Assembly: GCA_964016885.1 (NCBI GenBank)
Contig: OZ024743.1
Coordinates: forward strand, 363,940,001 to 364,004,000
Reading direction: 5' to 3'
Source: Eledone cirrhosa
Lineage: Eukaryota
Length of the DNA: 64,000 nucleotides
This document shows, piece by piece, positions 917-62,805 of this stretch (the stretch's first letter is position 1; each line of letters starts with the position of its first letter). The notes below the pieces were generated by a model that did no database searches, was not told where the DNA came from, and worked only from the letters and a program-made list of their open reading frames with translations. The position numbers and the translations under genes are program-made.

Positions 917-974
<58 letters not shown>

Positions 975-1016
975 TTCAAAATATTAATAAATGTAGACAT
1001 TTACTTAATCAAAATA

Positions 1017-1082
1017 TATTTTATTATATATATTTCGGAGGTACTGTGCTGTTTTTTCAGTACGTCCTCATCAGATAAAATA
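1017..1082 (-). ncRNA. Minimal type I hammerhead ribozyme
   Basis: Minus strand: TATTTTAT-CTGATGA-GGACGTACTG..CAGTACCTCC-GAAA-TATATA-TA|ATAAAATA. Stem I is 8 bp, stem II is paired and stem III is palindromic. Confidence 0.8.
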
Positions 1083-1540
1083 CATACATTGTTGTATAAC
1101 ATACCTCAACTGTGCTGATGGTCCAATTCCAGTCTTGCTTAAATTTTGGTTATATATATATATGTGTTCGGAAAAGATTGTTTAGTAAAAACAGGAGTAA
1201 GCAGGAGAAAGCTCTCAACAATCGTTGTTTTAGTTACGATGGAGAATTTTATAAAAATAACAAAATAAGATGCTGAGGTTACATATATCGTTTAATCATA
1301 ATAATTTTTTCTACGGTTCTCCATGCAATCGAGACGTCCTTCATGCATTTGCTGTTGATTATGAGTACGGTTTCCTCAAATGAAGATCGATATATTTGAC
1401 ATGTCGCTGGCAGGAAAACACACATCCTAATGCCTGTGCGCCCAGCATACATGAGAACGGTTTCCTCAGATGAAGATCGATATATTTGATATGTCGCTGG
1501 CAGGAAAACACACTTTCTTTGCTTGAACTTTAATCTGTTA

Positions 1541-5339: not shown

Positions 5340-5459
5340 GGAGAAAATATTGCCGGGAACAATTGCACTTCAGGTTTCATTACCCACATTCAAGTTTTAG
5401 TTAATTTTTATCAAAATATCAGGATTATTCCCTGCTTTCTTTTAACCATCATTTGTCAT

Positions 5460-5725
5460 CTTCTTCTTCGCCCACTTATTCCTGAGAGAGTCGTGGGGGC
5501 AGAGTCCTCAAACACTCCCTCCAACGGGTCCTGTCAGAAGTAACCGTCTCCAACTGATCCGACTAGATCCCCAAGCGTGACTAACTCATGGATGTTATCC
5601 AACCATCTTGCTCGGGTTCTACCCCTCGGTTTCCTACCTGTTGGTTTTGCCCGTAAAATCTGTCCAGCGATTCTTACCTGAGACATTCTAACCATATGCC
5701 CCTAGTATCGGAGCTGTGATCTCAT
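5460..5725 (-). mobile_element. RTE-clade LINE 3' end, inverted relative to 4960-5180
   Basis: Reverse-complement homology to 4960-5180, with a (GAA)n tail. The same 3' tip recurs at 15840-15897. Confidence 0.7.
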
Positions 5726-5978
5726 TTGTATTACACGGCTCAGAAATATCTCTTTCTTTGAGCTATTTAATTGTAAAAGACTTTTTGAGTTTATAACTCT
5801 TCATTCATAATATTCTTTTCCATCCAAACTGAAATCTACCTTCCTCTACCCATAATTTAAGGTTCTTCTACTACTATATTACTATCTTGACCCTCACTAT
5901 CTCTCTATTGGTCAATTCAAAACCTGTTCCCAAACAGACCTATTGTATTGAATCTTTGTTTTTTTCAATAAACAAATA

Positions 5979-6120
5979 TCATTATTTCTGAAGACAGCAT
6001 ATATATGTGTAGGTATGTATATTCCCTCTGATAGTTTGTATAAATATTGTACATAGATCTATAGAATATGCATACCAACTCTAACACATATATATCCTAG
6101 AAACGATCGTAAAATGATGA
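5979..6120 (+). ncRNA. Type I hammerhead ribozyme with ~105 nt stem II
   Basis: TCATTATTT-CTGAAGA-[ATATATATGTGT..GGTATGTATATTC..GAATATGCATACC..ACACATATATAT]-GAAA-CGATCG-TA|AAATGATGA. Stem I is 9 bp, including one G-U. Confidence 0.75.
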
Positions 6121-6170
6121 ATTTTTTTTACTATAAGGAACTGTTTCTTTGTTTATTCATTATTTTATTA

Positions 6171-6267
<97 letters not shown>

Positions 6268-6361
6268 AAATTAAAATTAAGGGTTGTCATTTCTGAGAGA
6301 CATGCGCCATATCCACTGTAGAATAAGCTCAAAGATTCCAATGAATAGATCTGAGCATTAC

Positions 6362-6753
<392 letters not shown>

Positions 6754-6984
6754 AGAGTATTGAGTTTGCTTGAAGCATTGTGGTATAATAAGATTTATTA
6801 TCTTTTAGTCGTTTTGGAAGCCTCAACAATGCAGATGGGTAATTCTCCGGGTAACAGGATCCGGTGGTGAAGAGAGAGATGTAAGGGAGTGTAGAATGAG
6901 ATGTATAGTGTGTAGAGGAACGTAGGAAAGAGCGTAAAAATAAAAATAATAACACGAGATGTAAGGGAATGTAGAATGAGATGT

Positions 6985-8738
<1,754 letters not shown>

Positions 8739-8750
8739 TTATATATATTT

Positions 8751-8820
8751 TTATTAAAATAACAGATTAAAGTTTAAGCAAAGAATTCTTTGCTTAAATT
8801 TTAATCTGTTATTTTAATAA
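8751..8820. repeat. 70 bp spacerless palindrome
   Basis: TTATTAAAATAACAGATTAAAGTTTAAGCAAAGAA|TTCTTTGCTTAAATTTTAATCTGTTATTTTAATAA, one mismatch. Confidence 0.9.
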
Positions 8821-9068
8821 ATATTTGCTCTAGGGTTCTTATATATTTGATATATATTTATCCTTATCGAACCCTCTTGGGATTTTAGTCTTCCCATTTA
8901 TTATTATTACTATAAATATATATATATATATATATATGTTTATGGGGGAAACGGGTTGAGCTCTGCTGTCGGCGTCTTAAACATTTTCCTATCACCCACT
9001 CTACTACCCTAAGTATTGAGTACTCTAGTGCGTTATGGTCCATCTGGTTCCTTACCACACTCCCTTCG

Positions 9069-9106
<38 letters not shown>

Positions 9107-9374
9107 TGGGGGGGACAAGTTATCGTTTTAGGTAATCCAGTTAGAAGTTGTGAGTACTCTGAACTATAACTTCAACTACCACCACCACTACTACTATCAG
9201 TAACCGTATTTTTTACTTATTTTTACTTATTTTTTATATCTTTTTCATTTTCATTTTTACTTCTTTATACTTTTTTTTATTATTCTTTTATTATCTTTTA
9301 TTATTGGTGTTATTATTTTCATTCACTTGTTTCTACGATGTATCTATAAATACCAGTGCCATGTGTTACACCCT

Positions 9375-9491
9375 GCAGTATTCCGATGATTTGATCAGAG
9401 ATGCACACTGTATTTAAGGTCGAGTGACGCAACGTCGAGTGATCAGCGGCCTTTAGACTCACCTGATCAATGAAACAATTGTTAACACTGT
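9375..9491 (+). ncRNA. Hammerhead-like motif with long stem II (core CCGATGA)
   Basis: CAGTATT-CCGATGA-T-TTGATCAG..CTGATCAA-T-GAAA-CAATTG-TT|AACACTG. TATAAA lies ~30 nt upstream and AATAAA just downstream. Confidence 0.6.
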
Positions 9492-16570: not shown

Positions 16571-16624
16571 TTGTGTGTGTGTGCGTGTGTGTGCGTGCGT
16601 GCGTGTGTGTGTATATATATAGAA

Positions 16625-16855
16625 ATAATTGTTTCTACTTTTGGCACAAGGCCAGCAATTAACCAGTACATTACTGGAACTTTATTTTATCGACCCGGTA
16701 AGGATGAAAAGCAAAGTTAACCTCAGCGAATAATAATTGTTTCTACTTTAGGCACAAGGCCAGCAATTACCCAGTGCATTACTGGTACTTTATTTTATCG
16801 ACCCCGTAAGGATGAAAGGCAAAGTCAACCTCGGCGGGATTTGAACTCAGCGAAT
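16625..16855 (-). mobile_element. Two tandem 5'-truncated tRNA-SINE copies
   Basis: ATAATTGTTTCTACTTT..GGCACAAGGCCAGCAATT..CGACCCCGTAAGGATGAAAGGC occurs twice. Confidence 0.8.
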
Positions 16856-18479: not shown

Positions 18480-19440
18480 CCTGTTTATTACGGTGATAGA
18501 TAAATGGCTATGTTTGTAAGATAAGTTATGGTAGATTTGCGATGTGGTGTCCTTTAATGGTGACAAGAGAGATGTTTAAAATGCTCAGTGGCGCTAAATT
18601 TTCAGACGCTATAAGTCTGGGGAAGTATACTGTTTATACAAACAGTTAAGTTATTGGATCGAATCCTGCTTATTTTGGTTTGTAGTTTATGAATGTGTTG
18701 GCGACTTTGTGCCTACAGTAGATTGTCCGTTCAATTTTGTTATTGTATTGAAAAATATGGAGTAATTCCATATTACATAATTTGCATTGGGACATCCCGT
18801 GTGTATAAGCCCTGGCAATTGATAATTTAGACCAGCTTATTTTGTATTCTTGTTTATTATTCGCAAGCTGCAAGATTTTATTGACCAGAGTTGTCGTGCT
18901 TCTGAGCCTGCGGTTCATAATCGAATGTCTATGCACATACCAGCGTTTCGTGAATTCCTTTACTATAGAACCTATGTAATACCATTCTTGGTCGTCTGAT
19001 TTTATAGTACATAGATACATTATATTGGATTCAAGACATTTGTTTTGTAGTGGGCATTTATATGGTAGATGGCAGTTACACTTAGTGGACTTCCTTGTGT
19101 TGGCTCTCCGTTATAGTCAGATGTGTAGCTTGAATTAGGCTGTGATGTTGGTCTGTTTATGTTGTGTTGCTGCGTTGTATATTGTCGACCGACTGGTTGC
19201 GATGTAGTTATAGAGTTGCGTTTGATGTTAGATGTTGTGTTGGTATGTGTGGACTAATACTTCTAGAGATTATTTTTGAGTTGAGTTTTCTTATGTATGA
19301 TTCTATATTTGCTGCAGTAGAATATGATAGTTTAATAGTTTTTCTATTGAAGATGTGGTATTTATGTGGTTTTGGTTATGCTTATCTATTAGATTAAATA
19401 AGATAAAGGGTAGATTGGTACTTATTGCATAATTGAATAC
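18480..19440 (-). mobile_element. Penelope-like element 3' fragment (Cys-linker GIY-YIG type)
   Basis: HKYHIFNRKTIKLSYS thumb, YKCPLQNKCLESNIMY..YYIGS..FTKRWYVH..CKLC..CRHK. Confidence 0.8.
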
Positions 19441-21378: not shown

Positions 21379-21433
21379 ACTGCCTGAAGAGGTCACAGCC
21401 AATGATGCCTGTCACCGAAATATATATAGCAGT
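21379..21433 (+). ncRNA. Minimal type I hammerhead ribozyme
   Basis: ACTGC-CTGAAGA-GGTCACAG..CTGTCACC-GAAA-TATATA-TA|GCAGT. Confidence 0.85.
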
Positions 21434-24309: not shown

Positions 24310-26470
24310 TGTAGCGAAAAAGCTGTTTTCCCACGGTGTTTTTCTCCCTCACGGACACGAACACCAAAAGAGTGACCGAAAACGGCTATTACGACTCCTT
24401 TCAGTCTCTTCAAGTTTCTTACAATGCCATTCGGTTTACGCTATGCTGCATCAACCTTTTAGTGTTTCATCGGCACTGTAGTACGTGGTTTACCCTTCGT
24501 CTACACGTATATTGATGATATTCTGGTAGCCAGCACATCCCACGAGGAACAAGAACGACACCTGCGACTGCTTTTCGAGCGTTTTTCTCAGTTTGGTGTC
24601 ATCATCAATCCCAACAAATGCCTTTTCGGGACACCACACCGACGAACAAGAAATCCGCCCTCGCCACAAGGTTAAGTCGATTTTAGATTTCCCCACTCCT
24701 ACACGTCCTTGAGGAAAGTACATCAGTTCCCTGGTTCATTCCTCGCTGTGCAAACGGAAGAATAAGCTTATCACTTTCAATGAGGCACAAGCAGCTACCT
24801 TTCTTAAAATCAAGAGGGTCTTAGCAGAAGCTACAGTGTTGGTTCATCCTGAACTCGACGCACCGCTCTGTCTCTTCGTCGACGCGTCAGATGTCGGGGT
24901 TTGTGGCGTCCTGCAACAATGTGTAGACGTTGCATGGCAGCCGATTTCTTTCTTCTCTGGGTGCCTCAAACCGGCTGAAACGAAGTACAGCATGTTCGGC
25001 CAGAAGCTTTTTTGGCAGACATTTCCGGCACATGTTAGAAGGTTCTGTGTTCTCTATTTACACGAACCACAAACCTCTCACGTATATTCCAAGCCTGACC
25101 GCCACTCACCTAGAGAAGTACGCCAACTGGATTATATATACCAATGTACTACGAATTTTCACCATATCAAAGGTTCAGACAACTCTGCAGCCGACGCTCT
25201 TTCTCTGCACAACCTATCACATCCTCGTGTCAACTCCACCCTAAAGTTAATAACAGCCTGGTTTGTCTGAGTTGGTATGAACAAGGCTGTCAGGGAATGG
25301 GCCAGTGTCAGAGGGCAACAATTCACCACCATGTCAGAACTCTTCTGCAAACCTTCGCAACACCAGATGCATGTTTCCAACATGCGCACATCGACATCGT
25401 CGGACCACTCCCTCTTTCTCGGGGTTGCACTCACCTTTTGACCTCTGTAGACAGAACCTTTCCCCAGCCTAATACGTCTATTACCAAGGCGCTAATACAG
25501 CATTGTATTTCGCGTTATGGTACACCTTCTATCGTCACAATGGACAGAAGAGGCCAGTTCGAATCGAACCTCTTTAACGATACGCCTCCTAGGTTAGTGG
25601 AACGTTTCCATCGGCAATTAAAATCTGCTCTCAGAGGTTATGTCAACAACTGGTTGAAAATCTTATCTCTTATCCTTCTTGGAATTCGCTCCACCGTAAA
25701 AGGAGGACTTGGTTTTACACCAGCTGAGCTGGTTTATAGCACGACATTAGTAATACCCAGGCAAATGATTGCACCTGATTCTCAACACCCAGCGGATACA
25801 ACAAACTACATCCATCGTCTGTGGACATATATGTCAAACCGGCCATCCGTTTCTCCTTGTCCTCAAGTATCACTGCTCACGTTCCATCTGACATACAGCA
25901 ATGGATACACGTTTTTTGTCAGAAGGGACACTGTCAGAGCTCCTTTACAGCCACCATACTGTAGGCCCTACCAAGTACTCAAAAGGACACCCAAACATTT
26001 CATTTTAGACATTAATGGTTAGATGGGTGCTGTCAGTGTCGACCGATTATAAAAATCTCACGTGGATTTGGAAACACCCTCACCATCAGACCAAGCTAAC
26101 CCAACATCAGCGCTCCCGTTCACCGGTACTCCTAACTCTATGCCAACAACAAGCACCAGATCCGGTCGACGGATGTACTGGCCATCTCGCTATGTCCAAT
26201 ATTTCGAGTAACATTCTTCATCACATCTATAATTTGTCCATCTTTTTTATTTTATTTTATTTTATTATATTTTTTATTCTTTTTTTTTCTCTCTTTCTAT
26301 AAGGGAAGTATGTAGCAGTTTCCTATGGCGCCATTGGTTCTCTCTTTCTTTACCTTTTCGATTATCTATCGCTACTCTGTTTTGATCTGGGCGGGGAACT
26401 AATGTAGCGAAAGAAATGTTTTCCCACGGTGTTGTTTTCCCCTTACGGACACGACCACCAAATGAGTGAC
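24310..26470 (+). mobile_element. Gypsy/Ty3 LTR retrotransposon remnant
   Basis: RT MPFGL..YIDDILV, RNase H LFVDASD and integrase HIDIVGPLP..VERFHRQLK. ~68 bp direct repeats start TGTAGCGAAA at 24310 and 26403, the latter after a purine-rich tract. Confidence 0.85.
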
Positions 26471-31266: not shown

Positions 31267-31861
31267 ATGTAATCTGAGTTTTTCGAATATTAATAATAAT
31301 ATTCGATTCGTTTGCAATTCTGCAAACAAGCCTCAATTTTATAGCCAGATCAGTGAATCTGCTAATATGCAGATCTGACTGATCAGCCAGTCTGCTAATA
31401 TGCAAATCTGGCTGATCAGTGGATCTGGTAATATGCAGATCTGACTGCTCAGCCAGTCTGCTAATATGCAAATCAGGCCAGTCAGTCACTGTGTGTTTTT
31501 GAAAATAGCATATATTTTCACTAGCTCTGACAGTTTGGCAGGTGAACTGTGAGCTGTACTGATGAAGGGTGATACCCAGAAACATTAGTGTCTGCAGTTC
31601 TGTTCGCATGCCAACATAAGAGCAAGAATGAAGTGTTCATTCTCCTGGCTTGTTTGCAAAATTGTAAACGAATCGAATGTTATGCTTTGACGCATAGAAT
31701 TACGGCCCTTTCCCTTTTGAGTTCAAATCCCGCCGAGGTCAACTTTACCTTTCATCCTTACGGGGTCGATAAAATAAAGTACCAGTAATGTACTGGGTAA
31801 TTTGCTGGCCTTGTGCCAAAAGTAGAAACAATTATTAATATTCGAAAAACTCAGATCACAT
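31267..31861 (+). mobile_element. HHR-bearing repeat (copy 2) with inverted termini, 33 bp minisatellite and a nested SINE (31684-31833)
   Basis: 31267-31332 is the reverse complement of 31647-31683 plus 31831-31861. About four TCTGCTAATATGCA.ATCTG.CTGATCAG units. Confidence 0.75.
31551..31600 (+). ncRNA. Type I hammerhead ribozyme, GUC site
   Basis: GAGCTGTA-CTGATGA-A-GGGT-GAT-ACCC-A-GAAA-CA-TTAG-TG-TC|TGCAGTTC. Confidence 0.85.
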
Positions 31862-42250: not shown

Positions 42251-42474
42251 TTATGAGGTTGGTTTTTCATTTTAATTTATCCTCTCTTAGCTTATATTCT
42301 CTTCACGCAGGAGGTTTAAAATCCTATAAACGAAAACACACTCTCCTGTGTTTTTCCTCTCTATAATGTATATATATATATATATAAAGCAATGAGCTAT
42401 TTAATTTTTTGGTTATTCAACAAATTTAGTTTATAACAGATTAGGAGCACTCTACAAGTTTCTTCTTGAATATA

Positions 42475-42810
42475 ATATCAATAATATTAATAAATAGAAA
42501 CTATCTTTATAAAACCATATTTATTTTATTATATATATTTCAAGGGTACCAAAACTTTTGGTACGCCCTCATCAGATAAAATACAAAAGTTGTTTTACGG
42601 ATAGTGACATATCCAAAACTAGAACTTCGCGTTTTGAGTAATTCAAACAGAACTCAAAACGCGAAGTTTTGAATATGTCACTATCTATAAAACAACTTTT
42701 GTATTTTATCTGATGAGAGCGTACCAACAATTTTGGTACCCTTGAAATATATATAATAAAATAAATATGGTTTTATAAAGATAGTTTCCATTTATTAATA
42801 TTATTGATAT
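42475..42810. repeat. 336 bp palindrome with a hammerhead on each strand
   Basis: Arms 42475-42639 and 42652-42810 with a 12 nt loop. HHRs at 42522-42583 (minus) and 42702-42763 (plus). Confidence 0.9.
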
Positions 42811-43199
42811 ATATATATACACATATACATACATACATTTATGCACACACTCACCCACACACATACATACTTATATATGCATGTGTTTGTTGTGAACATT
42901 GTAGATAACGGATCTTTTATTCGTTTGAGGCACCAAATTGCTCCATACGCATTCGGAGAGTGTCTTGGATGGCGTTAACGTCCTCGTTTATGATGTAAAG
43001 CCCTGTAATTAATAAGAAAATAATCCCCCTATTTGGGGAATTTTCTTTTGTTTCTATTTTCGTTACATCCTTTGTTTTTATTTTATACTCATTTTTACAC
43101 GCAGAAACCCACATTATACAATTATATATTGTCCTTAAGGAATTTTTATGTAAACCCTTTGTGATCAATAAAGAAAACATTATTTTTTTTTTTTGTGCA

Positions 43200-44794: not shown

Positions 44795-47700
44795 CTTTTC
44801 CAGATCAAACCTGAAGAAATATAGAAAATCCTGAAGCAGATCCGCCTCCAAAGTGATGACTGAAATCAGCAGGCCGCACTGTTCATTTGCAGCGAAAAAA
44901 CACACTTGCGAGCCTTCTTCCCTCAGCTGTTGAAAAATGCAAGGGGTCAAAAGTTTCTGCTGCTCCCGACGCCGGGGCCTCATCGCGAAATAACAACACC
45001 AACAACAAAATCTGCAGCAGAACCAACAACAACTGCAAAGACAACCAAGACCACCCAGGGACCACTCCAAAGAAGCTCTCCCGGCCCCTCCCTCTCGAAC
45101 ACACACACACACATTGAAACACACACACCCATACACGCACTCCCACTTACATCTGACACAAACACAGAAACCTCTTCATCACTAAGCGAAGATTAGGAGG
45201 AACACCAAAAGCTAAAAAAGACAAAAAAGAAAACACAAGAAGAAATCTCACACACCAACACAAACAGCAAACAAAAAAGACACATTCACACCAAACACTG
45301 ACACACATACTACAACACCCTCCCCCGCAAAAACGCAAACGTCAACACAAACACCATCTCCACCAACAACACTACCACTAACACAAACAACTAAAAGAAA
45401 ACACACAGAGCAACAACTTACAACCACAACACCTAACTTCGTGTTAGTGAGGAAATCGAACACAAAACTACTGAACCTCATAACACGAAGTAAGGAAATA
45501 GAGAAAGAGGGGGAGGTATTTAACACCTGCACCTTCAAGGTGCCACAAACACTTTTGCTGGTGCGAATGGCACTAACCAATTATAAGACAATTAGGGAGG
45601 GCTTCCCCAACAACGTGGGAACACCCAGTGTAAAAGCCTCAAGTAGGCTTTTAAAGGGATTCCTCAAAGAAACCCCACCAACTATGGAGTTCGAACCACA
45701 CGACCTTCACAAGAGCACGGGAGGTAAGTAAACATTTCCTCTCTCTTTTAGCCTGCCAATATGGCCATATTAAGAGTAGGATGTTTAAATGTTCGAGGCC
45801 TGGGATCATCCTGGAAGCAGGGTCACCTGCTCAATGACCTCAGGTCTCTAGAAATGGATGTAATTGCCGTCAGCGAGACCAAGATTTCCGACACGCGTGC
45901 ACTAACCCCTATTTTCGACGACTATCAGATCTTCGCATCTGTTAGTCGGCCGGGAATGGGAGGTGGGTGGCAATGCTGTTTAGGAAAAGCCTGGATCTCG
46001 AGGTAAGGTCGATCTTCCGGGACCCGGACGGTAAGTTGGTGGTCCTGGATGTGAACAATAGCGAAGGTGGTGCCTTTAGACTGGTGGCCGTCTACGCCTG
46101 GGGCAGGACGGCCGGATTTCTTTAGACGCCTGGAAGCCTTTCTGGGTACGTCTCGCCATTTACTGTTAGCGGGGGACTGGAACGGCATCTTAGACGCACG
46201 CTGGGATTGTGTGGGAGTAACTGATAGGAGCGGGGGGTGGAAAAGCCTCAAGTACATGATCAGCAAGTTCCAACTGTCTGACAGGTACCGACTAGATTTC
46301 CCTAATGCGCCAGTGTGGACCTGGACAAATCGTTTAGGGACATCTAGATCGTACTTAGATAGGTTTCTAATTAGATTAGTGGATAAGGATAGTATAGGGT
46401 GTCCACAATTACATACGGTCGCCTATTTAGATCACAAGTTTGTGATCTGTATGGTCGACCTAGATAAGACGCGTAGATTAGGACCTGGTTACTGGAAGCT
46501 GAACATGTCGTTTCTGGAACGTAAGGCTTACAGGGACGGGGTCAACAATTTAGTTAAGAAAAAGTTGACAGGGGGCTCTCAAAAGAGAGATTAGAGTAAT
46601 GTCGATAGAGTTTAGCAAAGAAGTAGCATTAGAGAAAAATAGAAAGGAGGGGGGATGGATAAGTTTGACGAGGCTGTTTGTAGTGGCATTGCAACTAACG
46701 AGCTAGCGGCGAGAATGGCATTAGATCATTTCTTCAATGCGAAACACGAAGGTTGCATTGTCAAAGCTAAGGCGCCTGCTCTGAGAAACGAGAGGACCAA
46801 AGCTGTTCGATGGGCCCGCGTGGCAGAGGTGCAGCATGGTAATAAAACCACGATTCGGTCTTTGGCGGACCGAGACGGACACGAACTGAGCGATTCCAAG
46901 CGGATGTGTGAGGCCTTTCGCCAACACTTTGCTCGGTTGTTCGGGGGAAGTGGCGGGTAAGAGACGGTGGCGGACTTCAGTCCCTACCTCAATGGCTTGC
47001 CGCAACTCTCGACGGCCGACGCTGAGCGCTGCGAAAGGCCGATTACTTCAGCCGAGATTCAGGATACCCTTGTCGGCTGCATGAGGCGCAAGTCACCCGG
47101 TTTGGATGGTCTGGCCTACGAGCTTTACGTAAATATGCCAGACTTGTTCTCCGATCTCCTCAAAGCGCTCTACTACAACTGGTAGCAGAATAGGAGTACT
47201 ACCAGTTTAATGTGCCGGGGCGTAGTGATGCTGATAAGGAAAGACGAGAATAAGAGGGACACATTAAACAATTTCAGGCCCCTAACTCTGCTCAACACAG
47301 AGTTTAAGATTTTGGCCAAGGTGTTAGCGAAGAGGTTGGCGCTTGTCGTCGGGGATTTGGTTGGGGAGGCGCAAACTTGCGCAATCCCAACCACGCCCAT
47401 ACACGACAACCTCCACCTGATGCGATACATCATAGAGAGGGTAGCGTGTAAACCTGGCTTCGGTGGGGCTCTGATCAATTTAGATCAATCGAAAGCTTTC
47501 GATAGGGTCGACCATCGGTACCTGGAGGCTGTCTTCAAGGCGGCTGGCTTCGGCTCCGTCTTCAGAAGCTGGGTCGCTGCAATGCACAGCGGCATCTGCT
47601 CAGTGGTCAAAGTTAATGGCCACCTCTCGGAACCGTTTCAGATTTCTCGATTGGTCCGTCAAGGTGTCCTCTCTCCTCCCTTCTGTACGTATTGACTCTC

Positions 47701-49325
47701 GAGCCTTTACTGCGGAAGCCGGAGCTGTTGCAGGACATCCCGCTCGAACCAGGACGTGTCGGCTTATGGGGAAGACATCACCGTGATGGTGTCGGACACC
47801 TCAGAAATCGAGGTGGTCGGCAACTTATTGGAGGAATATGAAAGGTTGACAGGAGCAAAACTTAACCCGGAAAAGTCGGTGGGCTTGCAACTCAGCACCT
47901 GGAGAGGAAAGTCCATGCCGTCCAACAGCGTCGTTGGGCGCTGGACGGACGGACCGGTAAAGTTGGTCGGGGTTTGGTCCGGGCCAGACCTCCAGGTGGA
48001 TAAGAATTGGGAGGAGGTGACTGGCAGGGTAGCCAGTCTCACCCAGAAATGGGCTGCGAGGAAGTTATCACTGAAAGGTCGGGCGGAGGTGGCGAACGCG
48101 TATATGACGTCCGTCATCTACTACCGCCTGGCCGTCGTCCCTTACCACCGTTCGCGCCTCGCCAAGTTGGAACAGCTCCTCTTCAAATTCTTGTGGAGGG
48201 GTCAGGTTCCGTTGGTGAGGCGGTCCATCTGCTGCCAGCACCCTCTACGTGGAGGGCTGGGCATGCCGTGGCTAATGATGCGCAGACATGTGCTGAGGCT
48301 GCGGCATCTCCAGATATTCTGCCTAAACAGTGAACAGATGTGGTCACCGTTTGTCTGCGGGCCTTTCCGCAGCTCGTCTTTTTGACTTAGCTTCAGTCCT
48401 GGGTCAAGAAGAGACCGATACTGGGTGACTGGCAGCTGGAATGTTGCCAGGCACTCACTGCCCTCTACCAAGCGGGAAATGCGGTCAGTGAAAGTTCCAC
48501 TCTCGAGTGCTATAGAGGATTAGTGGTGGGCAAGTGCAACAACGACTCGGAAAGGGCGGCGACGAAGTCGAGCTAATCAGTTTGTTCCGGAGGACTTCCG
48601 AGCCGGGGACGATGGATAATTTCCAAAAATCCCTCGCTTGACAGGCATGGAAGTGCTGTCAGGCGGACCTACCCGAGATGCGCGCAGAGCGACGAAACCG
48701 TTCTGCACGCACTCGTCCAGTGTCCGTGCATTACTGACTTGTGGGATTATTTTGAATAGCTGTTGTGTAGCACGGATCCGGCTATCGGCCGAGTCCATAG
48801 TGAAGATCGACCCGCCGCCTTCTTTTAGCCAGGAAGGGCAGGCAATTTTCCTCTGTCTCGTGGCAGTAGCGAAAGAGGTTGTATAGTGGACCAGGTTGAA
48901 AGGACTGAAGACAGATACTTTTCTCTTCGGCCAATCCCTCATCAACTTTTTCAAGTTTCACCTGGAAAGGAAGGTGAGGGTGGAGAGAGAAGTGATGCCC
49001 CCCCTCCCCCCAGTAGATTTGTGGAAAGGTAGGCGAATGTGGCGAGAATGGCCTGTGTGAGTGGGCCAACTCTGATCATGCGCCTGTAGGTGGGTGAATT
49101 TGAGGAGGAGCGGGGTGCCCTGCCCGGAAGCTCTCGAAGCGTCGGGTCGTTCAATATTGGTGGGGTACCTGAGTGAACCCTGGGTGACCTAGAGGAATTT
49201 TTCTTGTATTTTTCTTGTTATTTTGTTATTGTTATTTATATTGTTTACACCTTGTATATGTAAACCCCCACTCTTCCTGTCTTTTGTATTGTCCCCTATA
49301 TGTCGGCACTTGTGACCAATAAATC
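44795..49325 (+). mobile_element. Tx1/L1-clade LINE, near full length, frameshifted
   Basis: ORF1 remnant, APE (LNVRGL, AGDWN, SYLDR, DH), RT (NFRPLTLLN, LDQSKAFDRVDH), 3' UTR and AATAAA. Confidence 0.92.
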
Positions 49326-49337
49326 AAACTATTATCA

Positions 49338-49503
49338 TTGGCAGTATCGGTAGAGGGTCGCTCCTTGCCATTCTGAGTTCAAATCGCGCCGAGGTTAACT
49401 TTGCCTTTCATCCTTACGGGGTCGATAACATAAAGTACCAGTAATGCACTGGGTAATTGCTTGCCTTGTGCCAAAAGTAGAAACAATTATTATTATTATT
49501 ATT
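49338..49503 (+). mobile_element. tRNA-derived SINE (short variant)
   Basis: B box, GCCTTTCATCCTTACGGGGTCGATAA core and (TTA)n tail. Confidence 0.85.
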
Positions 49504-49639
49504 GGTCTGTTCGGGCGTTTTTTGCTCTCTCCCAGTTAGTCGCTTTATTTGCCTGTTAAAATTATTTGTTGTTAAATATTTCTTGTTGTGTAAGGGATAT
49601 AAGCCCGTAGACTTTGCCCTGTGAATGGGGAAAGTATAA

Positions 49640-52600
49640 TATTTGGGCATTTTAACCCTATATTTCTGCTGTCGTGTGACACCGGCGTAAAATTTGAGAG
49701 GAGGGTTAGTGAAATTCATACAACAGACACCACCACAAACAACGTGAACAAAGACAACAACACAGAGAACACTAATTTTGAAAACATTACCACACTAACT
49801 ACAATAATAACAGCGTCAACCAAAATACAGACAACAGAAAAAAATTACAACAAATGCAACAACGATATTAACACCACTAACAAGAAAATAAACAACGACA
49901 ACACCACCAGCAACAATACAAATTGCACCGAAAACAATAACAACGGTGGCACCAAAAACACAACCAACTACAACAGTGATAACAGCAACAACACCAACAA
50001 GGCAGCAACAGCAACAATACCAGTAGCGGCAGCAATAATGGTGCGGCTGAAAAAGGGTCCACTTCTTTCGCTGGTGTGGACCGAAATATAGAAACAGTGC
50101 TAGTCACGGAGGAGGAGATGGCAGTCGCAAGAACCATGGTGTCGAGAAACGACAATAGAGTTTCCCTGAAACCTCCACCCTATTTCTTCAAAGACCAGCA
50201 ACTGCGCACGGTGACTTACCGCACCGTAAGCAAAATGTCACATCGGGTGGAGAGAGCCACGGAGGCTCAAATCCAAAAGGCCTTGGGGTGCGTCTGGGCG
50301 CGCAAAACTCACATCACCCGAGGCAAAAAGTACGCCACAGTATGCGTACTATTCGCCGCGAAGTCTCACTCTTTGGAAACCCTAAAGAATGAGGAGATAG
50401 TCTTGGTGTCCTCCTACTGCGGGCAGAAAATTGTGAGAGTCAAAGTGACCCAGGTCCCGCCCGACGTGCCCATACCTTGGCTGGCCAGACATCATAGACC
50501 TCGAAGAAGGGCCCCAACTCCCTATAAGCGTGGAAGGAAGGCGCCCAAAGTGCTATCTCTGTGGGCAGAAGGATCATCTCAGGGCCTTCTGCCCGCAGAA
50601 GGCAGCCAAGAAGAGTACCCCCCTCCTGCCGACACCTGATCCGCTGCTACCAAGAGCAGGGCAGGCAACAGAGGCAGAAGACCCTTCCATGGTGAGTAGG
50701 AGGGCACGTCCGTGGCACCCATACCAAGGCCACGGACAACTAAAGCAGCGGCAGCAGTGGCGGCAACACCAACAGTCGCAGTAGCTACACTGGCGGTAAA
50801 ATCGCCTGAGCGGGTTCCACTACCACCAACAGCAGTAGAGTTCATGCCCCTCCCGGACGCCGCGGGGTCCGACATGGAGTGTGAGGCGGGAGGGAAGTAG
50901 CAAACAGTCTGCCACAAAAAAAAAAAAAAAAAAAAAACCTTAGCTTCACCCTCCAAAAGCGAAGGCAGACAAAGAGGGGCAAAGGCTGCAAGGAGACTTG
51001 CAGCAACATCACCACCATCACCATCACCACAAAAAGCATCACCACCAACAACAACCACACCACCACCAGCATCACCAAAAACACCAACATCACAAACACA
51101 ACAAAACACACACACCCAACAGCAACAAGAAAACAGCAACAAAATCACCCTCCCCCCAAAAATACACAGCCATAAACATGGCAAATGAAGAACTCTTACA
51201 ACATATAAAGCAGCACACAGACATCACAGAAAAAAACTACTACACCACACCAACACCAAGAACTCTCCCGGCAAACATAAACATCATTGAAATCAAAATA
51301 GAAAATTACAAACTCTTAAAACAAAAATTCCCCAACGCAGTTGGAGACTTCAGAGGGTCGGTTACCAAGAAGATATACACTGACATCTTCTTGGAAACAC
51401 CCATGACCAGCCAAAGGGACGGTTCTACTGTCCCTTCACCACACGATCAAGGTAAGTGATCCTTTCTCACTTGCCCCGTTTCTCATCCAACATGGCCGTA
51501 CTTAGAATAGGCAGTATAAATGTACGTGGCCTGGGTCATCTTGGAAGCAGGGTCACCTGCTCAACGACCTCAGGTCACTAAACATAGATGCAGTGGCCAT
51601 CAGCGAGACCAGAATCTCCGAAGCATGAGCCTTCGCACCGATCTTCGGCGGTTACGTTGTATACGCATCTTCCAGCCGTGCTTTTTCGGAGAGGCTTGGA
51701 TCTCGCCATACGGGCCATCTTCCTGGACCCAGAAGGTAAGTCAGTGGTGCTGGACGTGACCAGCAGCGAAAGCAATGCTTTCAGGCTAGTAGCCGTCTAC
51801 GCCCCAACAGGGGCAGGACGGCCAGATTTCTTCAGACGTCTAGAGACCTTTCTTGGAACGTCCCGCTCCTTAGTGTTAGTGGGCGACTGGAACGGTATCT
51901 TAGATGCAGGCTGGGATTATGTGGGACTAGTAGACAGGGAAGGAGGGTGTAAAAGCCTCAACAACCTGCTCAGACGTTTTGAACTGTCTGACAGGTATAG
52001 ACTGGATTATCCGAATGTGCCAATGTGGACATGTGCAAACCGCATCGGGTCATCCAGATCGTATTTAGATAGGGTATTCTGTAGGGAAACATAAGGCTAG
52101 TGTAGGTTGTCCACAATTTAAAGTAGTCGACTAGACGGACCACAAATTTGTGATCTGTGAAGTTGGCTTAGATAGACTCCATAGGCAAGGAAGCTACTGG
52201 AAGCTGAACGCGTCGTTCCCGGCGCGTAAAGCTTACAGAGACTGGATTAGCGAATTAGTTAAGCGTGCATTGACGGATGCGATCGTCAACAACAGGTGGT
52301 GGTTTACTCTGAAAAGGGCTATTAAAGTAGAATCGATAAGGTTTAGCAAAAGAGTAGTGATAGAGGAAAATAGAGTAGAGGGAGAGTTAGTTAGAAAGCT
52401 AGAAGAGGCATTTAGGACAGGCATCACAACCGACTTGCTTGCGGCGAGATTGGCGCTCGACCAATTCTTCAACGCAAAGCATGAAGGCTGCGTTGTCAGA
52501 GCTAGAACGCGCGCTCTATGTACTAGGGGTAAATCTCCAGGTATGGATTCTCTGCTCTACGAGCTTTATGCGTATATGCCAGACTTGTTGGCGACCTCTT

Positions 52601-54862
52601 GGCAGATGTCGAATGCAACTGGCAGCAGAACGGGAGCATTCCCAATTTTGTGAGCCGGGGGGCGGTGGCGCTGCTGAGAAAAGACCCGAACAAGTGGGAC
52701 GTTATAGACAACTTCAGGCCCATAACTCTGCTAAACGCAGAGTTTAAGATTTTGGCCAAGGTGTTAGCAAAGAGATTGGCGCTTGTCGTCGGTGATCTGG
52801 TGGGAGAGGCGCCGACATGCGCCATTCCGGGCAGATCCATGAACGACAACCTCCACCTCATGTGATACATCATAGAGAGGGTGGTTTAGGAACCTGGCAC
52901 GGGTGGGGCCCTGATTAACTTGGATAAATCTAAAGCATTTGATAGGGTCGACCATCGGTACCTGGCTGCAGTCCTCGAGGCGGCCGGCTTCGGGCCCGTT
53001 TTTAGGGGCTGGATCGCTGTGATGCACAGCGACATCTGCTCGATTGTGAGAGTGAATGGTCACCTGTCGCAGCCTTTCAGCATCATGCGCTCGGTCCGCC
53101 AGGGTTGGCCCCTCTCGTCCCTCTTGTACGTACTGGCCCTAGAGCCTTTACTACACAAATTGGAGACGATGAGGGGGGTCCTACGCGAACTGGGATGCGG
53201 GAGATCCGTGTCAGCTTACGCCGACGACGTCACCGTGGTGGTGTCGAGCACCAAACACGTGCAGATGCTCGACAGCGCTCTCAAGGAATACGAAGCTGTG
53301 ACAGGAGCAAAGATAAACCAGGAAAAGTCGGTGGGCTTGCAGCTCGGCACCTAGGGAGGCAAGTCCAAGCCGTCCGACAGTGTCGTTGGGCGCTGGATGG
53401 AAGGACCGGTTAAATTGCTCGGGGTCTGGTTCGATCCGGAATTCCAGATGGAGAAAAACTGGAGCGAGGTGACGAGCAGGGTGGCATCTCCCACCCAGAA
53501 ATGGGCCGAGAGGAGGCTGTCTCTGAAAGGTCGGGCGGAGGTGGCGAATGCGTACATAGCGTCCGTCATCTGCTGCCGCCTGACCGTCGTACCTTTCCTC
53601 CGCCCAACTCTGACCAAAATGGAGCGCCTTCTCATCCGCTTTTTGTGGACGGGGCGTATGCTCATGGTCAGACGATCCATTTGCTGCCAACACCCGTTGT
53701 GTGGAGGACTAGGCATGGCGTGGCTGATGATGCGCAAACATGCGCTGAGGCTGCGACATCTCTGGTGCTTCCTTGACGGTGAACAGGTGTGGTTGCCGTT
53801 TGCCAGACGCGCTTTTCTCCAGCTCGTCTCTTTGACGGAGCTGCAGTCCTGGGTCAGAAAAAGACTGAGGGATAGCGCTTGGAAGCTGGAATGTCTCCAA
53901 GTGCTCACCGCCCTCTACCGGCTGGGCACTAGCATCGGTGGAACATCCACCTCGGCGTTCTATAGAGGGCTAGTGGAGGGAAAGAGCGACGACGTTCTCG
54001 GAGAGACCCTGGCCGTCGAAGACGATCAGCTGTTCGCTCTCTTCAAGTGGAATTTCAGACCGGGGCCTATGGACAACTTCCAGAAATCCCTGGCCTAGCA
54101 GTGCTACCGGGGAGTGTTGTCGGTTTGGTATAAGCTCTACAGGTACGTAGGTGCTGTCAGTCGAGCCTGTCCGAGATGCGCACAGGGCGACGAAACCGTC
54201 CAGCACGCACTCGTTCAGTGTCCGAGGATTGCTGACTAGTGGAACTATGTCGAACAGCTGCTGTCGCGTGTAGGATGGATCCGGTTATCGACTGAGTCCA
54301 TTGTGCAGATAGCCCCGCCATCCTCCTTTAAATCGGAGGAAGGGCAGGCAGTTTTCATCTGCCTGGTGGCCATAGCGAAACAGATTGTGTGGTGGACAAG
54401 ATTGAAAGGGTTGAAGACGGACACTTTCCTCTCCGGCCAATCCCTGATTAACTTTTTCAAGTTTCACTTGAAGAAGAAAATAAGGGTGGAGAGGCAAGTG
54501 CTTTCTTCTAGCAAGTTTGTTGAAAGGTGGGTGAAAGTGGTGAGTCTGGTCCGAGTGAACGGGACCGCTCTGAATATACACCTGTAGTTTGAGAAATGGA
54601 AAAATTGAGAGAGGGCGCTTGCCCTGGTGGTCAGGGTGGACGTGGTCTTTTGTGTGGTTTTCGCCACGAGTAACCCTCAGAGGTTTCCCCCCTATTAGGG
54701 AATTTTCATTTTTATTGTTTATATATATATATGTTTCTATGTCGTTTTTTTCTTTTCTTATATAAATAATAAAAATCTTGACACGTACAAAACCCACATC
54801 GTACCGTCATGTGCCACCTGTAATGTTTTTCTTGATGTCAGCCCTTGTGGCCAATAAAGAAA
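49640..54862 (+). mobile_element. Second Tx1/L1-clade LINE, frameshifted
   Basis: ORF1 with zinc knuckle CYLCGQKDHLRAFC, APE from ATG 51492, RT YADD, zf-RVT and AATAAA. About 300 bp is missing near 52520 relative to the first copy. Confidence 0.92.
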
Positions 54863-62579: not shown

Positions 62580-62805
62580 GAGGGCGGTGGATTGTCAGTA
62601 TCGGTAGAGGGTCTGACACCATGCTTTGCAGCAAAGAGTTACGGCCCTTTATGGTCTGAGTTCAAATCCCGCCGAGGTTAACTTTGCCTTTCATCCTTAC
62701 GGGGTCGATAAAATAAAGTACCAGTCACGCACTGGGGTCGATTTAATCGACTTTCCCCTCCCCCAAAATTGCTGGCCTTGTGCTTATATAAGAAACCATT
62801 ATTAT
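62580..62805 (+). mobile_element. Full-length tRNA-derived SINE with Nin/Deu-like central domain (octopus OK-like)
   Basis: A/B boxes, GCCGAGGTTAACTTTGCCTTTCATCCTTACGGGGTCGATAAAATAAAGTACCAG core and (TTA)n tail. More than 10 copies or fragments in the window. Confidence 0.88.

Follow-up and report, generated by a model that had tools for sequence, protein, structure and literature searches.

Circular viroid-like RNAs with a ribozyme in each polarity carry two distinct ribozymes on the complementary strands of one circular replicon. Hammerheads on opposite strands are also known from Schistosoma, where pairs of minimal hammerheads (dual min-HHRs) lie 100–700 bp apart and were ascribed in 2014 to truncated Penelope-like elements (PLEs) (PMC4209133). 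In the same report, a short palindromic stem III is the mark of the dimer type and goes along with poor cleavage in vitro, while a G10.1-C11.1 pair closing stem II is described as a conserved hammerhead feature (PMC4209133). For PLEs themselves, the standard insertion layout comprises an inverted, 5'-truncated copy and a tail on one side (PMC8557442; PMC3846280), and a TCACT motif in the pseudo-LTR (pLTR) of a rotifer PLE has been called Inr-like (PMC3846280). With PAc, a Poseidon element of Anolis, both strands were cut and extended in vitro and two internal RT starts were found to bound the tail; a dimer is predicted, and uncleaved RNA is the substrate (PMC11167929). Finally, non-LTR retrozymes are defined as head-to-tail tandem units with at least two hammerheads on one strand (bioRxiv 10.64898/2026.07.22.740005).

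Here, we describe a palindrome with one hammerhead motif per strand at positions 42475–42810 of a 64,000-nt stretch of the Eledone cirrhosa genome (hereafter the window; contig OZ024743.1). It is very probably a pair of 5'-truncated pLTRs of a Hydra-clade PLE, placed head to head within a (TA)n microsatellite and likely derived from one insertion in which two break-primed cDNAs were joined. With the inverted-pLTR insertions of endonuclease-bearing PLEs, it shares an inverted 5'-truncated neighbour copy with 3' ends outward, a tail at one end, a microsatellite target and the Inr-like TCACT in the pLTR (PMC8557442; PMC3846280). It differs in that both copies are truncated inside the pLTR, with no ORF left, and in that the tail is 88 nt long compared with 30–40 bp in PMC8557442. 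Similarly, the Schistosoma dual min-HHRs are opposite-strand type I hammerheads from PLE pLTRs with a short palindromic helix III (PMC4209133); here, by contrast, the parent, both end points and a 5' hotspot could be mapped, and stem II is closed by G-U and not by the conserved G-C. Two fixed 3' ends bounding a tail, an AT-rich target and, probably, uncleaved RNA copied through the hammerhead are shared with PAc, which belongs to a different clade. While the two end points of the present family are upstream of the ATG, PAc starts inside the ORF, and while the end points here are followed by AT letters matching the target, the starts of PAc are reported as non-homologous to the cut DNA (PMC11167929). 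The non-LTR retrozymes resemble the palindrome in their small size, non-coding nature, type I hammerhead and relation to PLEs (bioRxiv 10.64898/2026.07.22.740005). This identity was nevertheless rejected, as the palindrome has one hammerhead per strand, arranged head to head, and no head-to-tail tandem.

The palindrome and its hammerhead motifs

The segment 42475–42810 is predicted to fold into a single rod of -208.2 kcal/mol (z -36), a stability equalled by 0 of 100 shuffled sequences. As the original prediction had stated, it consists of inverted arms around 12 nt, the left arm (42475–42639, 165 nt) and the right arm (42652–42810, 159 nt) differing by seven mismatches and one 6-nt indel. Both arms are pLTR sequence. 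The left one has its element sense on the minus strand and starts about 65 nt upstream of its hammerhead core, and the right one, which as an element copy covers 42641–42810 on the plus strand, starts 3 nt inside the 5' hotspot of the family. The 12 nt in the centre (42640–42651), described as a loop in the original prediction, are present but are not a loop proper: this head-to-head junction comprises one untemplated A (42640) and 11 nt of ordinary pLTR sequence found in the right arm only. The predicted extent likewise fits the palindrome but not the element, which takes in an 88-nt PLE tail borne by the left arm alone (42387–42474, minus strand); the (TA)n target microsatellite flanks it on the left (42369–42386) and on the right (42807–42819). 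Across the family, arms end at either of two fixed 3' points, E1 or, 88 nt further, E2, and the tail is the interval between them. Relative to the hammerhead core, the right arm of the window copy spans -76 to the untailed end E1, where it stops at G42806 followed by ATAT common to arm and target, and the left arm spans -65 to E2. The flanks of the window copy are (TA)n, and no target-site duplication is readable there.

Type I hammerhead motifs lie at 42522–42583 on the minus strand and at 42702–42763 on the plus strand, their cores (CUGAUGA...GAAA) beginning at 42575 and 42710, respectively. In each, stem I measures 8 bp, stem II is long and stem III is a palindromic AUAUAUAU, and AUA triplets place the predicted cuts after 42530 (minus) and 42755 (plus). 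Of the features of the type I (dimer-type) hammerhead, both boxes (CUGANGA and GAAA), stems I and II, a stem III that is short and palindromic, and the NUH site are all present; an Rfam scan of the whole window gave zero matches at gathering thresholds. The original prediction of a complete hammerhead on each strand is correct for the motifs and their cuts. However, "complete" does not imply active, since the pair predicted to close stem II is G-U, in both arms and in most relatives, and not the conserved G10.1-C11.1. The two hammerheads are one pLTR sequence duplicated, one copy per strand, and they are present because both sit within the pLTR. It had also been anticipated that a long hairpin would compete with ribozyme folding, and fold predictions agree: the pairing probability of stem I, merely 0.05–0.25 in single arms, is abolished (0.0) inside the full rod. 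RNAcofold of the two hammerhead segments did not yield a double-hammerhead fold. As read-through RNA would bury the hammerheads in the long hairpin, the product of the palindrome is most likely inert.

Some further features of these hammerheads were observed. Among 116 arms, hammerhead position +8 (42718 and 42567 in the window) is occupied by all four bases (A 69, G 22, T 19, C 6) and is nearly random between the arms of one locus, unlike upstream positions, and the loop of stem II occurs in both orientations across the family. A second type I hammerhead of the window (21379–21425, plus strand, core at 21384) belongs to another PLE family; it shares with the palindrome the AUAUAUAU stem III and the C-C mismatch at the fourth position of stem II, its closing pair is G-C, and a relative lies in locus L243.

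The parent element

In the genome, an exact 29-mer taken from the arm is matched 380 times, compared with 0 for the reversed control. The first 100 matches listed were merged into 89 loci, which were chosen blind to structure. Some of the arms run on upstream into an AT-rich body that was traced to copies of about 4 kb with a broken RT-linker-GIY-YIG ORF. In most of the 30 loci that include the ORF start, arm and tail are located directly 5' of the ATG, and the arm is therefore a pseudo-LTR; in full elements the tail runs into the 5' UTR, with the ATG about 55–60 nt beyond. Arm and tail also form the PLE 3' end in the decayed full copies L087 and L088, and in L088 an inverted arm with its tail abuts the 5' end of the element. 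The inverted pLTR of the original prediction was thereby recovered, arm and tail adjoining both the ORF start and the 3' end of the PLE.

The element in L087 is about 4 kb long (5430–9403). Its single ORF, with RT and, at the C terminus, a GIY-YIG endonuclease (EN), is broken in L087–L089, while the related L243 has an open frame of 743 aa. RT and GIY-YIG were assigned by motifs and by tblastn to a Neptune RT, and Pfam searches of the parent ORF pieces returned nothing above cut-off. The motifs KSDKT, CNCRNE[L/I]NC, CHLC and CKH, without CCHH, were found in L087–L089, and the same set recurs in L243. In PMC8557442, the Hydra clade is defined by DKT in place of DKG, a CxCX5C linker, CxxC and CxH in the EN and the absence of CCHH. 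With the PLEs of this clade, Hydra-1_Obim among them, the parent shares the C-terminal GIY-YIG EN, DKT, the CxCX5C linker and the lack of CCHH, together with CxxC and CxH in the EN, insertion into (TA)n and a hammerhead in the pLTR. It differs from them in a distance of about 1.5 kb from the ORF end to the hammerhead, in its length (generally under 3 kb in the clade, which PMC8557442 offers as a remark and not as a strict criterion) and in reading RWR where the clade has RWK, although the Hydra-1_Crog row of the supplement likewise reads RWR (PMC8557442). Compared by eye, the hammerhead sequence is dissimilar to the Hydra-1_oBim row of that supplement. With the clade placed by motifs, the arms are almost certainly the pseudo-LTR of a Hydra-clade PLE of about 4 kb.

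The intact 856-aa Neptune-type ORF of L054 was considered as a parent and rejected, as its 3' end has no sequence in common with the arm and its target is (CA)n. This open frame of 856 codons (L054, 3971–6541, minus strand) is flanked by 2.1-kb inverted duplications of 96% identity. More generally, an RT query gave 31,857 first-look candidates in the genome, of which 144 were scored; Hydra-type PLEs are very abundant, and related families retain open frames of up to 743 aa. The window itself contains a decayed piece of a related Hydra-type PLE with an endonuclease-region frame and a CNC...C linker (18670–19375, minus strand), a decayed piece of a related pLTR with 75% identity (972–1098, minus strand) and the GIY-YIG endonuclease remnant of another PLE (7472–8002, minus strand; Pfam E 0.0015, below cut-off). 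A SINE-like repeat of about 190 bp, nested in the 3' UTR of one parent subfamily (L037, L024, L087), is common on its own in the window (for example 16616–16850, 31682–31841, 49372–49504 and 62587–62736). By eye, the regions at about 45900–54100 and at 24713–26022 contain decayed non-LTR copies (endonuclease and RT) and an LTR-retrotransposon RNase H/integrase remnant.

Family copies and the origin of the palindrome

Among the 89 loci, an inverted partner was found in 46 and a short double-hammerhead palindrome in 25, while 43 have no partner within 1.5 kb; these classes were drawn from the end points of BLAST matches, with at least one misassigned locus (L189). The 5' ends of the partners range from -1037 to +149 relative to the core. 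For the whole genome, some 1,100 arms and 170 short palindromes are roughly estimated. Arms were compared in a set of 58 palindromes, 39 of them obtained with the palindrome as query and 19 coming from the 25 above (five duplicates and one unparsed locus were dropped), and in 53 of the 58 the tail is on one arm. Arms of the same locus differ by 5.2%, whereas arms of different loci differ by 7.8% (tailed-tailed), 8.2% (untailed-untailed) or 8.1% (crossed), and 0 of 10,000 permutations were as extreme. No alignment column separates tailed from untailed arms in this set. At eight positions with subfamily letters, the two arms of a locus agree at 0.82–0.96 versus 0.51–0.70 by chance, and 25 of 259 rare variants are common to both arms.

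Both 3' ends are used in a regular manner. One arm ends at E1 and the other at E2 in 31 of 34 classed inverted pairs (p 4e-7; the 46 pairs minus 12 with an unclassed end), and at least three TA repeats lie outside 27 of 30 tailed (E2) and 39 of 42 untailed (E1) ends in other copies. An adjacent inverted truncated copy (46/89 loci) and a one-sided tail (31/34 pairs) are what the PLE inverted-insertion layout consists of. At the other extremity, 71 of 135 5' ends fall between -84 and -60, adjoining TC|ACT, with a hotspot at an A located about 79 nt upstream of the hammerhead core (A-79). In copies that continue upstream, the base preceding A-79 is C in 42 of 43 and never G. By hand tally, 55 genome-wide matches have another base than C at this place (G 25, T 16, A 14), a share of G with p 2e-5 against an expectation of 0.20 and 0.04 against 1/3; at a control position 3 nt downstream of A-79, G was found in just 1 of 11. 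None of the 25 G|ACTAT loci continues upstream. Reading by eye, the partner arm is not the source of the junction G in 13 of them (12 events) and could also supply it in the other 12, and in 7 of the 25 the G-bearing arm has no tail while its partner is tailed. In L1, an untemplated 5' G has been interpreted as cap copying (PMC9341517). We infer that the extra G before A-79 is cap-like, the start site and the cap both being read from insertion junctions alone. A search of the openly accessible literature, subscription journals being outside its scope, returned no report of a cap-derived G or of twin priming in PLEs.

Most arms extend across the hammerhead cut site, and the template RNA was therefore mostly uncut. 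Matches without the core upstream number 14 of 42 at the cut, while a control position gave 0 of 15; among ORF-start copies, 3 of 30 have their 5' start within about 4 nt of the cut. Most of the 14 cut-site starts are equally explained by TA microhomology, substitution of the cut base, internal deletion or SINE overlap. In a minority of copies the 5' start may lie at the hammerhead cut, a reading confounded by TA microhomology; if true, such starts would be a genomic trace of in vivo cleavage.

A mechanism can be proposed in which the PLE protein, likely as a dimer, would cut both strands within (TA)n, reverse transcription then being primed at E1 from one break end and at E2 from the opposite one. 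The template would be a capped, mostly uncleaved sense RNA whose first base is the initiator-like A located some 79 nt upstream of the core. Each cDNA would cross the hammerhead to reach or approach the cap, which would often be copied as an extra G, and microhomology or end joining would then link the truncated ends of the two cDNAs. Judged from the insertion sequences, this two-cDNA step is somewhat favoured. It agrees with the in vitro behaviour of PAc, with its cutting and extension of both strands, its pair of internal starts on either side of the tail, its predicted dimer and its uncleaved substrate RNA (PMC11167929).

The main competing explanation keeps the same identity of the arms and supposes that one cDNA folds back or switches template at or near the 5' end of the RNA, copies itself into a second arm and is then resolved at E1 or E2; we consider it unlikely, though by no means negligible. 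It would account for the high concordance of the arms within a locus and for the rare variants that they share, and both observations, the agreement at the eight positions and the 25 of 259 variants, also fit gene conversion. Nine of the 12 loci where the partner could supply the G have one and the same junction, which a capped cDNA could equally make by fold-back, the cap-derived C closing a 2-bp hairpin. Self-priming has moreover been proposed for PLEs, there on an antisense template (PMC3846280). A copy of a cDNA cannot, however, hold what this cDNA lacks. Among the 31 E1+E2 pairs, it is the untailed arm that extends further 5' in 19 and the tailed one in 7, with 5 ties; in the 19 each arm has private sequence, so neither contains the other, which favours two separately primed cDNAs over template switching or fold-back. 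The window copy belongs to this non-nested kind. This is also where the original prediction, which derived the inverted pLTR from template switching, fits less well than two primed cDNAs. The arms of L261 and L263 have no overlap, and the junction still keeps the extra G, while in L248 and L250/L251 both arms begin at -79 with a 3-nt spacer between them. A fold-back on antisense RNA is further disfavoured by the extra G at the start site, which points to a sense, capped template. Loss of DNA from the centre after insertion could make some nested pairs, that of the window included, look non-nested, and both the joining of two cDNAs and the fold-back of a single one may occur.

Other explanations would give the palindrome an existence of its own. 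That it is a self-propagating non-autonomous unit, MITE-like or SINE-like, moving as a whole, may seem to follow from a genome query with the palindrome, which gave 2,685 first-look candidates and near-full-length palindromes (85–100%) at 40 of 40 scored places; such a search selects loci that resemble its query, and the structure-blind 89 loci are mixed. One junction 20-mer, the commonest, does recur 15 times in the genome, but among the loci compared, the 15 with this junction type have the tail on the long arm in 7 and on the short arm in 8, and the junction occurs on different haplotypes. Centre strings (27–91 nt) differ in 45 of 46 cases, later mutation contributing, and the window junction has a single exact match in 3.0 Gb, its own, so that the other copies sharing it which the original prediction envisaged were not found. 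Being unique, this junction marks an insertion by-product, though one of a recurrent kind. A MITE or another foldback propagating as a unit, with the same centre and arm asymmetry handed down among copies, is thus largely refuted and the self-propagating unit very improbable; the varied junctions, the unique junction of the window and the lack of an inherited left/right asymmetry suggest that the palindrome is likely remade at each insertion. Slightly less probable still, in our view, is an RNA of the viroid-like or retroviroid-like type carrying a ribozyme in each polarity, or else a dsRNA/ADAR/Dicer cassette with a function. The rod fold and the hammerhead motif on each strand are indeed shared with viroid-like circular RNAs, and both motifs are intact in 27 of the 58 palindromes, the window copy included (one is intact in 21, none in 10). 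In the present case, however, both ribozymes are a single sequence duplicated, they descend from a PLE that resides in DNA, a unit-length monomer cannot be released with one site per strand, the predicted pairing of stem I is nil within the rod, and the hammerhead core decays across copies at the same pace as the neighbouring sequence. An ADAR footprint was looked for in genomic copies, transcripts not being covered, and no A>G excess was present in element sense (52/5,835, or 0.0089, versus 84/6,683, or 0.0126, for T>C). The viroid-like architecture of the original prediction is accordingly not supported, its ribozymes being copies of one pLTR, one per strand, in a unit that is not inherited as such. 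The chance of an assembly fold-back artefact is close to nil: chimeric reads can yield perfect palindromes and no contig spans the junction (three contig sets from one sample, the pieces being mostly other family copies), but the arms differ by seven substitutions and a 6-nt indel, only one of them is tailed, the flanks are unrelated, and 58 such loci with differing junctions are spread over many contigs.

Implications for PLE integration

Opposite-strand hammerhead pairs from PLEs have already been published, and the window copy itself is an ordinary PLE insertion stub, an inverted pair of PLE ends representing a known and likely dead-end insertion product. Such stubs keep resembling viroids in sequence scans and are a useful class of false positives when animal genomes are searched for ambisense-ribozyme RNAs. 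The value of the family lies less in the window copy than in its junction statistics as a test of PLE integration, and it is useful because the mechanism of this integration is still unsettled: antisense self-priming was proposed and tests were called for (PMC3846280), the tail was ascribed to endonuclease resolution (PMC8557442) and the later integration steps were left unvalidated (PMC11167929).

There is a little better than an even chance that these stubs record how PLEs integrate, a dimer priming two reverse transcriptions from both sides of a break in (TA)n, one at each of two internal start sites, on capped sense RNA, with the cDNAs meeting head to head. If true, this double priming would by itself account for the inversion of the pLTR, for a tail on one side and for a 5' hotspot bearing a cap-derived G, and it would take the place of antisense self-priming as a model. 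The family provides countable predictions, namely that the start site bears an extra G, that each pair combines an E1 with an E2 end and that the arms are non-nested, and these are testable in an existing in vitro system.
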